A DNA stretch of 64,000 nucleotides from IMG/VR virus record IMGVR_UViG_3300028603_000019, positions 131,877-195,876 of that record, one strand, 5' to 3'. Shown here piece after piece: positions 1,809-8,060 of this stretch. The notes under the pieces were generated by a model, which saw nothing but the letters and a program-made list of their open reading frames with translations, made no database searches and had not been told where the DNA came from. Position numbers and translations under genes: made by a program. The stretch is from a virus (Duplodnaviria; Heunggongvirae; Uroviricota; Caudoviricetes). How positions within the stretch are numbered: the first letter of the stretch is position 1; each line of letters begins with the position of its first letter.

Positions 1809-2002
1809 GATCGTGTTCGATCTCCTTTGCTTGTTGTTCCCGACATTGTGTTGGTTTTCACGAAGTCATACAGCTGATTCGCCGTTCTCAGCAAATCAGC
1901 TTCAGTATAGGGTGCCTTCATCAGACTCATGTTATCCTGAAGAATCTTCTGAGCAAGATGAAGTGTATCCAGGCGGATCTCATAGGCATTACGATTGCTC
2001 AT
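1805..2002 (-). CDS. Small hypothetical protein (start reassigned to MSNRNAYEIRL)
   Basis: NAYEIRLDTLHLAQ...ANQLYDFV pattern; AGG RBS before ATG at 2002. Confidence 0.65.
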   Translation of the reverse strand: MSNRNAYEIRLDTLHLAQKILQDNMSLMKAPYTEADLLRTANQLYDFVKTNTMSGTTSKGDRTRS

Positions 2003-2786
2003 CTTGTCCCTCCACCATGGATGCCCGTTCAGCGGACGTGAAAGCGGAGGCATCATAAGTCGCTTGGGTTCCCATCCCTTGAAGTCGAAGATCATTTACC
2101 TCTGACATCTTGGCCGATGCTGTCCGAAGGGTAGCGCCCATGTTATTGGTATTGTATTGAGCAGTCATGTGTTCCTTGAAGCCCATTGTCTGGCCGACTT
2201 GGAACGAGTCGATGTTGGCACCTAGGAACATGAAGCTCCAGTCCTTACCTTCACATTTCTCCACGATCTGCTTCACATCTGAGACGGTCGCGATCTTCGA
2301 TGAATTTTCTTCGCCATCGGTCATGATTGCGATCATGACGGCTTCACGGTTCTTTTTCTTCCGTGTGCCCAGGTCTTCATTTATCTGAGCAACGACCGAG
2401 AAGATGGCATCATGGAGATTGGTCATTCCCGTTGGATCATAATCCGCGGCAGTCAAGTCTTGAACTTCCAGAATGTTCCGCTTGATGAATACCCCGTTGG
2501 TGTTGTATCCATCAAATTTGTAGAGTGAGACAAAAGTCGGAGTATCACGTTTCGAGGCAGCTTCCTTCTGGACACCCATGAACTCATTCACACCAGATAT
2601 GGTGGCCATTCGGCTAGGTCTCATAGACCCGGATTCGTCGAGGACAAGCACGATATGGGTGCCATTGGTTCCAATCTTCTTCGCCTTAAAAGTTTCGCCG
2701 AGTTTGGATGGAGCTGACTTGGTGGGAAACATCGAAGTGTTCGGTTTCACAGTGGTGTATGGAGTGGTGATTCTTCTGTGTGTCAT
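1989..2786 (-). CDS. von Willebrand factor A (VWA) domain protein
   Basis: MIDAS motif VLDESGSM, later T(NLHD) and IMTDGEENSS. Confidence 0.9.
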   Translation of the reverse strand: MTHRRITTPYTTVKPNTSMFPTKSAPSKLGETFKAKKIGTNGTHIVLVLDESGSMRPSRMATISGVNEFMGVQKEAASKRDTPTFVSLYKFDGYNTNGVFIKRNILEVQDLTAADYDPTGMTNLHDAIFSVVAQINEDLGTRKKKNREAVMIAIMTDGEENSSKIATVSDVKQIVEKCEGKDWSFMFLGANIDSFQVGQTMGFKEHMTAQYNTNNMGATLRTASAKMSEVNDLRLQGMGTQATYDASAFTSAERASMVEGQDEQS

Positions 2787-2814
2787 GTGTGATAGTTCCT
2801 TTGTGTTGGTGTGT

Positions 2815-3062
2815 GAATGGCCCGTTCTGTTTCTAGGTGGAGCCCATACCCAGTTAGATCAAGCCGCTAGGGCGAGATCCACAGGTGCTTTGTTTGTGTT
2901 TGCATCTGTTTGGTTTCTTGCGTTGACCCAGCTTGCGCGGGACTTCCTAGTTTCCTCTTTCCGCTCATGTCGATCCTGTTTATCGCCCATATGAAGGTTT
3001 GGTGGACGATCCGGGTACCGCCCCCGGGTCCATGAAAAGTCCGATTCACTTGAGGTCTTCAC
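2815..3062 (-). ncRNA. ssrA: Two-piece (circularly permuted) tmRNA, alphaproteobacterial type
   Basis: Minus strand: T-arm GACCCGGG-GGCGGTA-CCCGG then ATCGTCCACCA (3030-3000); 11-nt intervening segment (2999-2989); coding piece starting GGGCGATAAACAGGATCGAC at 2988. GGGCGAU pairs with AUCGUCC, giving G3.U70, discriminator A and encoded CCA. Tag ORF 2903-2859 is ANTNKAPVDLALAA*. Outer ends are approximate. Confidence 0.93.
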
Positions 3063-3087
3063 GAGATTAGGAAGTAATCTCTCATGT

Positions 3088-3465
3088 TTACTTAGTCACG
3101 TAATAGCAATAATCAGGCAACTCATTCACAATTTTGTCTGCTTCAATTTCCCACCATCTTTCTTGATATGGGATCCTCTTGTCTAGTTGGTTTTCCAGGT
3201 CCTGCTCCTGAAACTGCCTCACGTGAACCAACTCATGTGCCAGTGTCCAGAAAATCTCTTCCCGTGTTCTATTCTCCAGTCGGAGTTCAATCATATAGCC
3301 GACGTCTCCGTTCTTGAAGACCCGGCCCACTGGTTCCATTTCATCGTTGGCAAGAATCAACAGTTCATCCGGTTCTACCATTCCAAGATAGAACCGGATT
3401 AAAATTTCGGCAGATCGTATTATGAATTGTTCTAGGTCGGGATCCCCGAAGGTAGCTTCAATCAT
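3088..3465 (-). CDS. Zincin-like HEXXH protein
   Basis: TLAHELVHVRQ plus WWEIEA. Confidence 0.75.
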   Translation of the reverse strand: MIEATFGDPDLEQFIIRSAEILIRFYLGMVEPDELLILANDEMEPVGRVFKNGDVGYMIELRLENRTREEIFWTLAHELVHVRQFQEQDLENQLDKRIPYQERWWEIEADKIVNELPDYCYYVTK

Positions 3466-4062: not shown

Positions 4063-4488
4063 TCACCGAAATTCCTCCGTGACATAGGATGCAACTTCAT
4101 CCCCGTGGGTCGTGTAGATTACTTTCTTTATTCCGTGATCCTTGATACAGCGCATGCACCCAGAACACGGACGGGACATGCCGAACATGGTATTCTGAAA
4201 AGAGTCCATCTTCACTCGGGCAACATACAGAGTAGACCTCTTGAGATCCGTTTCAGAGATCCTCTTCCGCGCTTTCACGATGGCATCCACCTCGGCATGC
4301 AGGAAAATGCTGTGTTCATTCTTCTGATACTCAGCGGCGACCGGATGGGTCTTGTCCTGATTTACTCCGACCGAGATAATCTTGCCCTTGTAGACGACTG
4401 CTGCTGCCACTTTGGCATTGAACACCTTGGGGAGATCCTCGAGGACCACTTCCAGAGTGTTCAGAATTTTTGCATCACGAACGGTCAC
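4063..4488 (-). CDS. Cytidine/deoxycytidylate deaminase-family protein
   Basis: Zn-binding HAE and PCSGC motifs. Confidence 0.85.
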   Translation of the reverse strand: MTVRDAKILNTLEVVLEDLPKVFNAKVAAAVVYKGKIISVGVNQDKTHPVAAEYQKNEHSIFLHAEVDAIVKARKRISETDLKRSTLYVARVKMDSFQNTMFGMSRPCSGCMRCIKDHGIKKVIYTTHGDEVASYVTEEFR

Positions 4489-4494
4489 TGAAAG

Positions 4495-5388
4495 TCACCT
4501 ATCATAGCGATCCAGCACTTCCCGAAGCTCCCTGATCATCTTGTCGACCGGAACTTCACGTTTCACAGCACCATCAATGGACCCGTAGTGAATTTCCAGA
4601 CATTGAAGTAGAAGCTCCTTGATACCGTCTTTATCAGGAGCATGTCTTAGAGACGAAGAATTGTATACCTCTTCCAGGGATTTTTCTTTCACGTCGAACC
4701 AATCACGAATCTTCTGTTCAGACCATTCACCACGGCGAATAGATTTTAGGATCTCACTGTTGCGTTCCAGGTCCAGATCGTGCTCTACCAGGATTTGTTC
4801 ACATTCAAGGAGAAGTCGAATTGTGTGGTAAGCGAACTTGACATCATAACCATGTTTCTCAATAGAAGCCTGGCGCTTGGGATTGGAAGCATTGGACTTG
4901 GTCCCAATCTTGTGGAGCTGTGAATACGCGTAGCCCCGAAACTTGTGCCATGCCTTCTTGGACAGAAACACGTTTCGGTTGTCACGGACCAGTTGACCGA
5001 TCTGAGAAGCAAAGAGGACACACCGTTGTGGGACATGAATGATATCCACCATATTCGGATTGTTCTCCATGGCCAAGTGGAAGAACTTCACGATGGAATA
5101 CACGGCAAAATCATACTCTGTTCTGGCTTCATCGTCCTTGATGTGATGCTGCTGCCAGACCTCGAATCTCTGCTTCTGGATTCCGAATCCAGGGATCTCA
5201 CCCCTCAGATGCGGAAACACGTCTTCCTTCGGGGGAATGCAGAAACCAACAATGTCCATGTCCGATGTATCGGAACTGACACCGTAGGATACACTTCCCG
5301 TGATCACCTCATAGTGGATGTTTTGTGGCAACCACTTTGGAGGCTGAATCAGGTTCTTGGATTTTGCTAGTTGGACTCGAGAAGCCAT
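4495..5388 (-). CDS. Pol-beta superfamily nucleotidyltransferase (RlaP / T4 nrdC.11-like)
   Basis: GSVSYG...SDMD catalytic motif; ENNPNMVDI and YDVKFAYHTIRLL segments. Confidence 0.85.
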   Translation of the reverse strand: MASRVQLAKSKNLIQPPKWLPQNIHYEVITGSVSYGVSSDTSDMDIVGFCIPPKEDVFPHLRGEIPGFGIQKQRFEVWQQHHIKDDEARTEYDFAVYSIVKFFHLAMENNPNMVDIIHVPQRCVLFASQIGQLVRDNRNVFLSKKAWHKFRGYAYSQLHKIGTKSNASNPKRQASIEKHGYDVKFAYHTIRLLLECEQILVEHDLDLERNSEILKSIRRGEWSEQKIRDWFDVKEKSLEEVYNSSSLRHAPDKDGIKELLLQCLEIHYGSIDGAVKREVPVDKMIRELREVLDRYDR

Positions 5389-5934: not shown

Positions 5935-6534
5935 ATGCTTCGAGAATATATAAAGGAATCCTTCCTAAGACATCTAGCTGAGGGTCGGAATCCAAACTAT
6001 AAGATATTTCCCATCTTTGGAGAATATGTAACCGGGAAAACCATCAAGACTCCTCCTATTTTGACCAAACTTAAACTCAAAAATGCGTTCAAAAAATTAG
6101 GTGGACGTGATTCAGCTGCCAGAGATTCTATTATTCTAAACAGCGAAGCCGCGAAAAAGGTGGAAATCTTCCTGAGAGGACAGGAATTTAGAAAAGAGAC
6201 GAATGATTACGCCAAGATGAAAATCCATTTGAATGGGCTTCCACATATTTATGGAACATTCGTAAAAGATCAGGTCCTCTATAAAGATGTATATGGAGAT
6301 GAAGTTGAAGGAAAGTTTGTAACAAAATGGCCATATCCCGAAAGTGGCAATAACACCAGAAAATTAAAATTAACCGTTGAAACAGTCGTTGTTATAGCTG
6401 GAAGAAATTCCCCATTTGAAAATGAAGATCAGATCTGGTTTGCCTATATCTTTGCGCCACAAACGTCTGATCTGGTGAAAGATGCTAAATCTGGTTTATA
6501 CCGATTCTCTGCGACACGAGATATAATTACGTAA
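5935..6534 (+). CDS. Hypothetical cargo protein inside the IS605 element
   Basis: 199-aa ORF, GGAG RBS, ATAAATA late-promoter-like motif at 5902-5908; opposite strand to flanking phage genes. Confidence 0.75.
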   Translation: MLREYIKESFLRHLAEGRNPNYKIFPIFGEYVTGKTIKTPPILTKLKLKNAFKKLGGRDSAARDSIILNSEAAKKVEIFLRGQEFRKETNDYAKMKIHLNGLPHIYGTFVKDQVLYKDVYGDEVEGKFVTKWPYPESGNNTRKLKLTVETVVVIAGRNSPFENEDQIWFAYIFAPQTSDLVKDAKSGLYRFSATRDIIT

Positions 6535-6538
6535 TAGG

Positions 6539-6700
6539 TTATATCAATTCAATCTCAAAGTCCCTGCTTTCGGCTTTCTTTAGGAGTCTCTTGATTTCAA
6601 GGTTCATTCTACCGACAAGAAGTGGTTTCCTATACTTGGTAACGAAAATAATGTGAACCTTCAAGAAATATTTTCGATGATTCTTGCAAATATAGTCCAT
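6539..6700 (-). pseudogene. tnpA: Truncated IS200-type Y1 transposase (not in ORF track)
   Basis: Manual translation MDYICKNHRKYFLKVHIIFVTKYRKPLLVGRMNLEIKRLLKKAESRDFEIELI*. Contains the diagnostic HxxFVTKYR and stops just before the HUH motif. Confidence 0.88.
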
Positions 6701-6752
6701 TTAGACGGTTCCAGAGAATCTCATTTGTCTAAATACTTAGTAATATTAGAAC

Positions 6753-8060
6753 GTGAGATTTTCTTCCTTGTCCATCATGGGTTTCAAATATCGGATCTAT
6801 CCAACACCTGAACAGAAAATTCTGTTCAAACAGGTATTTGGTAACTGTAGACTCCTATGGAATATGTTTCTTGACAAGGAAATGAAGGAATATCAGGCGA
6901 CCAAGAAATTCAACTGGTATCATGCAAATTCCAAGTGTCTTCCGGGTCTCAAGAAGCAGATGGAATTCCTGAAGATCGGTCCTTCTCAAGCATATCAGGC
7001 GGCTTTGATGGATCTTGATCAGGCTATCAAGAGGAAGTGCAAAGACAAGGCTGGAACTGGATTTCCAAAATTCAAACGCAAGAATATTTTTGAAAATGGA
7101 TTTCGTGTCGTTCAAACTCCTGATAAATGGAAATGGAACGAGGGTCATATTACTGTTCCAAAAATAGGCAACGTGAAATGGAAGCTGCACAGGGATATTC
7201 CATCAGGGTTCTCCACGGTGACAATTTCCCAAGACGGAACTGATTATTACATTAGTCTGGTAGTCGAGGTTCAGGATAATAGTCCAGTTTCTGATATCCA
7301 ATCCATGAACAATGTAATTGGCATTGATCTCAACTCCAACGATCTTGCGGTCACGTCTGACGGTGTTATCCACCAGAACCCAAAGTTCCTCAAGAAGGAC
7401 CGGAACAAGATCAAGCGGCGACAAAGACAACTGGCACGGGCACAAGCTGGATCCAATCGAAGGAAGAGACAACACCTTGCCGCCAGGAAGGCATATCGGG
7501 ATGTTTCCAGGAAGCGAAGGGACTTTTTGCACAAGCTATCGAGGGATTTCGTCTCCAACTATGACTTGATATGCCTTGAAGATTTGAATGTGAAGGGGAT
7601 GCAAAAGTTCAATGGAACCATGGTTGGTGATGCCGGATGGAGCACACTAGTCGGGATGATCGGCTACAAGGCTACTCAAGCGGGCAAACGTGTCATCAAG
7701 ATCAATCGTTGGGCACCAAGTTCAAAATGTTGTAACAATTGCGGGGAAGTGAAAGCCAAGCTTCCTACTCATATCAGGACCTATTCTTGTAATCATTGTG
7801 GAGTATCCCAATCGAGGGATATCAATGCCGCATTGAATATCAGGGATTGGGGACTTCAAGATTACCTATTGTCTACCGAATCATTTGATCCGGATTCGAG
7901 ACCAACTACCGGTGGGACGCCGGAAAGTCACGGACGGGGAGATACCTCTATCGGGGTTGGAGCGCAAGCTCCTGCTAGATATGTATCGTTGAATCGTCAA
8001 AAGTTCCTTGGCTCTCTTGTAGTGACCGAGGAAGCCTGGAAATCTTCAGTTTCCAGGTAG
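6753..8060 (+). CDS. tnpB: TnpB RNA-guided endonuclease (start may be ATG 6777)
   Basis: GFKYRIYPT N-terminus; RuvC I GIDLN, RuvC II LEDL, Zn finger CxxC..CxxC, RuvC III RDINAALNI; all three catalytic acidic residues present. Confidence 0.95.
   Translation: MRFSSLSIMGFKYRIYPTPEQKILFKQVFGNCRLLWNMFLDKEMKEYQATKKFNWYHANSKCLPGLKKQMEFLKIGPSQAYQAALMDLDQAIKRKCKDKAGTGFPKFKRKNIFENGFRVVQTPDKWKWNEGHITVPKIGNVKWKLHRDIPSGFSTVTISQDGTDYYISLVVEVQDNSPVSDIQSMNNVIGIDLNSNDLAVTSDGVIHQNPKFLKKDRNKIKRRQRQLARAQAGSNRRKRQHLAARKAYRDVSRKRRDFLHKLSRDFVSNYDLICLEDLNVKGMQKFNGTMVGDAGWSTLVGMIGYKATQAGKRVIKINRWAPSSKCCNNCGEVKAKLPTHIRTYSCNHCGVSQSRDINAALNIRDWGLQDYLLSTESFDPDSRPTTGGTPESHGRGDTSIGVGAQAPARYVSLNRQKFLGSLVVTEEAWKSSVSR

Follow-up and report, generated by a model that had tools for sequence, protein, structure and literature searches.

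Introduction

The two-piece tmRNA of Alphaproteobacteria is represented by the ssrA gene of Caulobacter (Keiler, Shapiro and Williams, 2000, cited in PMC9004378). The same layout is on record for phages. Melnitz, a T4-like phage of a gammaproteobacterium, was reported to carry a two-piece ssrA of the alpha type (Buchholz et al., 2022; PMC9004378). The survey in the same paper comprised 133 unique phage tmRNAs, of which 53 were two-piece forms, 50 of these marine or aquatic. Permuted tmRNAs were present in 17 of 47 Melnitz-like contigs, and two-piece tmRNA is also reported in pelagimyophages (PMC9004378). Huge phages with tmRNAs and SmpB were described using ARAGORN (Al-Shayeb et al., 2020; PMC7162821).

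Here we report the analysis of a tmRNA gene in a virus contig of the Caudoviricetes. The stretch of DNA analysed, called the window throughout, is 64,000 nt long and corresponds to bases 131,877-195,876 of the 210,571-bp IMG/VR record IMGVR_UViG_3300028603_000019 (CheckV 100%, G+C 47%). The original prediction, made from the letters of the window alone, had placed a circularly permuted tmRNA on the minus strand and considered phage tmRNAs to be mostly one-piece. The latter statement is true in a narrow sense only. Next to the 53 of 133 published forms, searching IMG/VR with the alpha-type T-arm yielded at least 120 loci, and ARAGORN recognised complete permuted tmRNAs in at least 63 of the IMG/VR loci. 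Thus, the two-piece layout is nothing out of the ordinary in aquatic phages. Such genes are documented and common, and the window copy is an ordinary example of them.

Identification of the gene

Two independent detectors, ARAGORN and the Rfam covariance models, agree on a permuted tmRNA. ARAGORN calls it at 2768-3092 on the minus strand with the tag ANTNKAPVDLALAA. It is the only tmRNA in the window as well as in the whole genome, and in both it is flagged as permuted, i.e., the 3' tRNA domain precedes the 5' domain. In Rfam 15 the family tmRNA_permuted (RF04321) matches 2859-3057 with 74.5 bits against a cut-off of 47 (E 1.9e-12). The family alpha_tmRNA (RF01849), which the original prediction had singled out together with ARAGORN as the proper check, matches 2816-3113 with 70.6 bits against a cut-off of 50 (E 3.1e-17). 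Both families score above their gathering cut-offs again when the whole genome is scanned. By these scores and E values the tmRNA match is far beyond chance.

The order of the parts is that of a permuted gene: the T-arm and the 3' strand of the acceptor stem with its CCA are located upstream of the 5' acceptor strand, the D-loop segment and the tag frame (Table 1). The proposed parts were confirmed nearly all to the base. None of the sequence and structure elements which make up a two-piece tmRNA is missing or damaged. The phage genome contains a complete circularly permuted tmRNA gene of the alpha type.

Table 1. Features of the tmRNA locus and of the adjoining ORFs; positions refer to the window.
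Feature	Positions	Strand	Basis
Permuted (two-piece) tmRNA gene, from 5' hairpin of acceptor piece to 3' end of pseudoknot	2819..3081	-	Rfam RF01849/RF04321, ARAGORN
5' hairpin of acceptor piece, GAGAUUA / 5-nt loop / UAAUCUC, 7 bp	3063..3081	-	at site of first hairpin in RF01849 consensus
Helix 2, 5' strands: GGACUU (P2b, 3042-3037), UUCAUG (P2a, 3036-3031)	3031..3042	-	complementarity; P2a also Rfam
T-arm: CCGGG 3027-3023, loop GGCGGUA 3022-3016, CCCGG 3015-3011	3011..3027	-	sequence reading, Rfam
Acceptor 3' strand AUCGUCC 3010-3004, discriminator A 3003, encoded CCA 3002-3000	3000..3010	-	sequence reading
Intervening segment, 11 nt, presumably removed on maturation	2989..2999	-	sequence reading
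Acceptor 5' strand GGGCGAU 2988-2982, then D-loop-like AAACAGGAUCGA	2970..2988	-	sequence reading, Rfam
Helix 2, 3' strands: CAUGAG 2969-2964, AAGUCC 2945-2940, with 18-nt internal segment between	2940..2969	-	complementarity
Tag reading frame, resume codon GCA, encodes ANTNKAPVDLALAA, then stop	2859..2903	-	ARAGORN; high posterior probability in RF04321 alignment
H-type pseudoknot after the stop: S1 2853-2848 with 2838-2833; S2 2844-2840 with 2823-2819; conserved AACAGAA between	2819..2853	-	alignment, pair counts
Non-genic 67-aa ORF, upstream continuation of tag frame through tRNA-like domain up to a GTG	2859..3062	-	ORF list; no Pfam
Upstream phage ORF, 125 aa, function not assigned; stop 7 nt before tmRNA hairpin	3088..3465	-	ORF list; homologues in G001, G002
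Downstream phage ORF, 265 aa, VWA-like, phrog_7371; ribosome-binding site about 20 nt after pseudoknot	1989..2786	-	ORF list, PHROG

The gene is situated underneath an ORF of 67 aa which had been considered spurious, and rightly so. One could argue that this ORF, or an ORF of 138 aa on the plus strand, is what the region encodes, and that the RNA match is incidental; both frames are open indeed. Yet neither has a Pfam family, and the curated thresholds of two covariance models are exceeded, the E values lying between 1e-12 and 1e-17. Further, conservation with the relatives discussed below tracks base pairing, not codons. Neither exact protein sequence is contained in a collection of 15 billion proteins; this is weak evidence, because the GTG start may have been read as Val. 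A protein-coding role of the region is exceedingly improbable.

The expectation that gene callers miss the gene holds for callers of proteins and for three GenBank phage records (see below), but not for ARAGORN, which finds the window copy at once.

The tRNA-like domain

The T-arm, a stem of five pairs with a 7-nt loop, is identical to the alpha_tmRNA consensus, in line with the loop GGCGGUA that had been read from the sequence. The acceptor stem consists of seven pairs, G-C, G-C, G.U, C-G, G-C, A-U and U-A, and carries G3.U70 and A73. The alanine identity pair G3.U70, the A73-CCA end at 3000, the spacer of 11 nt and G1 at 2988 had all been located correctly. Co-folding of the two pieces by free energy was of no informative value and returned a fold which is not tRNA-like.

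We compared the acceptor stem with 212 loci from among the matches listed, i.e., 92 viral loci from which both strands could be extracted and 120 bacterial loci. In this set 92/92 viral loci retain the seven pairs and have G3.U70 without exception; G3.U is equally invariant in 120/120 bacterial loci. Against the common form GGGGGCG/CGCCUCC the window copy differs in four positions, and all four differences are compensatory. The pairs C4-G and U7-A66 occur in none of the 212 comparators from among the matches listed. The exact pattern of the acceptor halves has no match in IMG/VR, and the 23-mer which joins the T-arm (T-loop) to the acceptor strand has no exact match in 185,579 bacterial and archaeal species representatives.

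We considered the short spacer as a trait specific for phages and rejected this idea. Bacterial Alphaproteobacteria often have spacers of 4-16 nt, as seen in at least 120 loci including those of Pelagibacteraceae, SAR116 and Paracaedibacteraceae. Short-spacer tmRNAs of the alpha type were also seen on three contigs of metagenome-assembled genomes labelled Verrucomicrobiales (L219, L235, L276), a label which is probably due to mis-binning.

Helix 2, the tag and the pseudoknot

The pairing CAUGAG/UUCAUG, originally suggested as helix 2a, forms 6 bp with one G.U and coincides with the inner helix of both Rfam models. The strands of P2b are perfectly complementary, a pairing recognised by inspection only; this outer part of helix 2 is less certain, because the Rfam alignments mark non-standard pairs there. 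The tag frame is the same in the original prediction and in ARAGORN. It opens with an Ala resume codon and closes with CUA GCG GCU UGA, i.e., with a LAA end. The tag starts with ANTNK instead of the usual ANDN; ANTN is also present in one other viral copy (L033).

The pseudoknot downstream of the stop codon had been proposed in a form which is half correct. Stem 1 (CUGGGU/ACCUAG) stands. Stem 2, proposed as UGGGCUC/GGGCCA, was one base off; in that register a G-G clash ends the pairing behind the third pair. In the corrected register, GGCUC/GGGCC, it is a strongly covarying helix. This emerges from an ungapped alignment of the 46-nt region, anchored on AACAGAA, of 41 distinct phage-contig tmRNAs: in stem 2 pairs have changed on both sides in 6/6, and 77% of the cells are paired. 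The covariation score of the pseudoknot is 0.434 versus 0.185 in shuffled alignments and was reached in 0 of 500 shuffles. In the same 41 sequences the signal of stem 1 is blurred by a length difference of one base between sequences. Compared with the relative G001, stem 1 displays the changes C-G to U-A and G.U to C-G.

Phages which share this pseudoknot variant are short fragments except for L019. The polymerase of L019 is 31% identical, and the phage is only distantly related; tmRNA similarity thus does not track phage lineage there. Among the matches listed the most similar tmRNA overall is that of a viral fragment (L047), with 72% over 184 nt.

Do these elements serve trans-translation, or does the RNA interfere with it? 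As a decoy or modulator it would soak up host SmpB or re-tag stalled products and thereby block or redirect trans-translation of the host. The tag start ANTNK and the atypical acceptor stem would suit such a role. Further, smpB is absent from the phage genome, which leaves the RNA to compete for SmpB of the host, and a precedent may be seen in phage DS6A, whose tmRNA is confined to the tRNA-like domain and is reported to resemble a tmRNA-inhibiting molecule (PMC4131195). However, for a decoy the tRNA-like domain alone would suffice, whereas in the window copy the tag frame, the resume context, the LAA degron end and the pseudoknot are all intact, with the covariation of functional tmRNAs; ANTN, as mentioned, is not confined to this copy. 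We regard a decoy as unlikely.

The genomic setting

The tmRNA is located about 135 kb into the 210-kb record in a gap of 301 nt between two phage ORFs (stop 3088, start 2786). From the end of the pseudoknot to the start of the downstream ORF the distance is about 30 nt. This tight fit bears on the question whether host DNA was misassembled into the phage contig, or whether the gene is the remnant of a prophage attachment site. tmRNA genes are reported to be frequent integration sites (PMC4383910), and some matches of the IMG/VR T-arm scan probably are such remnants. Against this stand a whole gene deep inside the record, separated from phage ORFs by 7 and about 30 nt, an acceptor stem found in no bacterial genome searched (185,579 species representatives), and 401 sampled Alphaproteobacteria whose matches are limited to the tRNA-like domain. 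The chance that we are looking at an artefact or an attachment-site remnant is minute.

The gene is surrounded by homologues of T4-type genes, namely gp59, both subunits of topoisomerase II, a subunit of an SbcC-like (gp46-type) nuclease and gp43 (PHROG, Pfam). By its predicted replication module the phage qualifies as a T4-like (Straboviridae/Kyanoviridae-like) myophage. The gp43 polymerase is about 42% identical to gp43 of T4-like cyanophages, and no cultured phage was closer; psbA, a marker of cyanophages, is absent from the genome. The genome encodes 33 tRNAs, which lie in the region 60-94 kb, a long way from the tmRNA.

Neither a sigma-70-like promoter nor a terminator was detected around the tmRNA, consensus scans being at chance level, and the T4 late motif is missing on the minus strand from 6000 to 1500. 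No riboswitch or other RNA family is present near the tmRNA at the Rfam gathering score or at E <=1. As promoter and terminator motifs are absent, co-transcription with the neighbouring genes and release by tRNA-processing enzymes is the simplest reading.

Several other genes of the phage deserve mention. Upstream on the same strand are an RNA-repair-associated nucleotidyltransferase of the RlaP family (window 4495-5388, minus strand) and a small cytidine/dCMP-deaminase-like gene (4063-4488, minus strand). An Rnl2-type RNA ligase is encoded elsewhere in the genome (G000:C1:54420-54884); RtcB was not found in it. An IS605-family TnpB of 435 aa and an ORF of 199 aa occupy 5935-8060 of the window on the plus strand, between a topoisomerase II gene and an ORF of 135 aa. 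The TnpB insertion is specific for the window phage, because the flanking genes are adjacent in the relatives G001 and G002. TnpB gives no clue to the host, its nearest homologue being 54% identical.

Homologues of the VWA-like gene downstream of the tmRNA (phrog_7371) exist in many huge-phage contigs, often beside tRNA arrays. In three loci a tmRNA is followed by such a homologue at a distance of no more than about 1 kb; the tmRNA is one-piece in L179 and L180 and permuted in L199. A query with the VWA gene returned a closest match in which a syntenic tmRNA is absent. The vicinity of the two genes could be a matter of chance in tRNA-rich phages.

Relatives and other phage copies

Topoisomerase II identifies three relatives in IMG/VR with 67, 63 and 57% identity (G001, G002 and G003; G001 has 283 kb). 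They belong to the same T4-like lineage as the window phage, and RlaP of G001 is 74% identical. All three possess a permuted tmRNA above the Rfam cut-off. The genes differ from the window copy in their tags (ANDNFKPQVRLAA, ANDNYKPSGYALAA and ANDNVYMMAA) and in their spacers, which are longer than 11 nt; in G001 about 120 nt separate the tmRNA halves (L327:1646-1766). Between G001 and the window copy compensatory changes are evident in the T stem, the acceptor stem and stem 1 of the pseudoknot.

The tmRNA of G003 stands apart. It reaches 55.5 bits with RF01849 over part of the model only, and its T-loop is the ordinary GGUUCGAAUCC, not the alpha-type GGCGGUA. It is located about 2.8 kb downstream of topoisomerase II (L326 / L324:14157-14427) in the same orientation as in the window phage. 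G003 hints that in a variable slot one type of tmRNA was replaced by another. A gene neighbourhood of the tmRNA is not conserved in the three relatives, positions and neighbours differ, and in G001 the homologue of the 125-aa ORF is followed by tRNAs instead of a tmRNA. As all relatives have a tmRNA, yet at varying sites, the lineage keeps a tmRNA while the gene moves or is replaced.

This mobility might be taken as the mark of a passenger, acquired from a host or from another phage and decaying since selection has ceased. In line with this, the score of 70.6 bits with RF01849 is the lowest among the full-length matches of the phage copies scored, the others attaining 74-200 bits. However, the window copy has no broken element, the differences in its acceptor stem are compensatory throughout, pseudoknot and T stem keep their pairing, and a permuted tmRNA is retained in every close relative. 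A decaying passenger is quite unlikely, even slightly more so than a decoy.

Alpha-type permuted tmRNAs were further identified in three cultured phages of Alphaproteobacteria, i.e., Sinorhizobium phage Phosso (PV764938, L329), Rhodobacter phage RcXuper (OP186293, L330) and Ruegeria phage vB_RpoS-V10 (MH015255, L331). They score 106-113 bits with RF01849, exceed the cut-off of RF04321 and encode the tags ANENFAPMEMRLAA and ANINNAPMEMAIAA. All three are situated in intergenic gaps and lack a feature in the GenBank record. Their backbones are unrelated to that of the window phage, the spacers are longer, and the sequence similarity of the RNAs to the window copy is confined to the tRNA-like domain or the pseudoknot. 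The Phosso gene, with a spacer of several hundred bases, was missed by ARAGORN. In vB_RpoS-V10 a GOLLD RNA (RF02032, L331:844-1277, 151.4 bits against a cut-off of 150) is positioned directly upstream of the permuted tmRNA and downstream of a tRNA-Met; GOLLD RNA and tmRNA are both unannotated.

Bacterial counterparts and the host

A close bacterial donor could not be identified. Apart from the 23-mer, which is absent from the 185,579 species representatives, BLAST matches are limited to the tRNA-like domain. This applies to the 120 short-spacer bacterial loci from among the matches listed (at most 65 bits) and equally to a sample of 401 alphaproteobacterial genomes, 293 of which match, again with at most 65 bits. 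The sample includes one unpublished genome (G048), on which no claim depends.

The alpha type of the tmRNA suggests an alphaproteobacterial host. Such reasoning from the sequence can fail, because Melnitz with its alpha-type ssrA infects a gammaproteobacterium (PMC9004378).

Proposed function

Our preferred reading is that this T4-like jumbo phage of lytic appearance carries a functional ssrA, circularly permuted and of the alphaproteobacterial type. Judged from sequence and structure this is very probable, and the rivals discussed above, i.e., a decoy or re-tagging RNA, a decaying passenger, a 67-aa protein and an assembly artefact, rank far below it.

The gene would be read within a long minus-strand transcript. 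RNase P of the host would cut 5' of G2988, and host 3'-end enzymes would trim to the encoded CCA at 3000, whereby the 11-nt linker is lost. Acceptor piece and coding piece would then be held together by the acceptor stem of 7 bp and by helix 2. Charging is expected from the host AlaRS via G3.U70 and A73. As the phage has no smpB, the host SmpB would have to serve; together with EF-Tu it would bring the tmRNA to ribosomes stalled on broken mRNA. The ribosome would move to the tag frame and add ANTNKAPVDLALAA, the LAA end of which would mark the product for host proteases. The fit of the window tmRNA with host SmpB and AlaRS is an assumption, since the 23-mer of T-arm and acceptor strand was met in none of the bacterial and archaeal species representatives.

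In addition to its 33 tRNAs, the phage would likely gain further capacity for rescue during the degradation of host and early mRNAs. The purposes put forward in the original prediction, i.e., a substitute for host tmRNA cleaved by nucleases of defence systems or a means of dealing with nonstop mRNA, are plausible.

What is unusual about the window copy is confined to the unique sequence of its acceptor stem and the tag start ANTNK. One may speculate that acceptor stem, U7-A66 pair and ANTNK have diverged on purpose, either giving a replacement tmRNA which is spared by a factor of the host or of a defence system that targets host tmRNA, or a tag which provides rescued products with another fate, e.g., by altered adaptor binding. 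We give little credence to this. Should acceptor stem and tag prove adaptive, however, the locus would be a means of studying how phages adjust ribosome rescue or take it over.

Beyond that, the gene adds a well-resolved example to the view that large aquatic phages carry RNAs for the maintenance of translation, tRNAs plus a tmRNA. There is also a lesson for annotation: the gene is hidden under a callable ORF, and the records of three cultured phages in GenBank have no tmRNA feature.

Comparison with known systems

With the two-piece tmRNA of Alphaproteobacteria (RF01849) the window copy shares the permuted order, the T-loop GGCGGUA, G3.U70, the A73-CCA end and the segment AAA(N)AGGAUCGAC, further helix 2, the Ala resume codon, a tag ending in LAA and the AACAGAA pseudoknot after the stop. 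It differs in being encoded by a phage, in the acceptor stem GGGCGAU/AUCGUCC and in a tag which starts with ANTNK, not ANDN.

Compared with Melnitz and the pelagimyophages the window locus lacks an early promoter motif upstream. It is further set apart from Melnitz, according to the published description, by the lack of a glutamine riboswitch or any other adjacent Rfam element. The G+C content of 47% and a polymerase which is about 42% identical to that of the nearest cultured T4-like phages likewise distinguish the window phage from Melnitz and the pelagimyophages. What unites them is the T4-like myophage type, a permuted ssrA of the alpha type, a set of encoded tRNAs and a context free of integrase.
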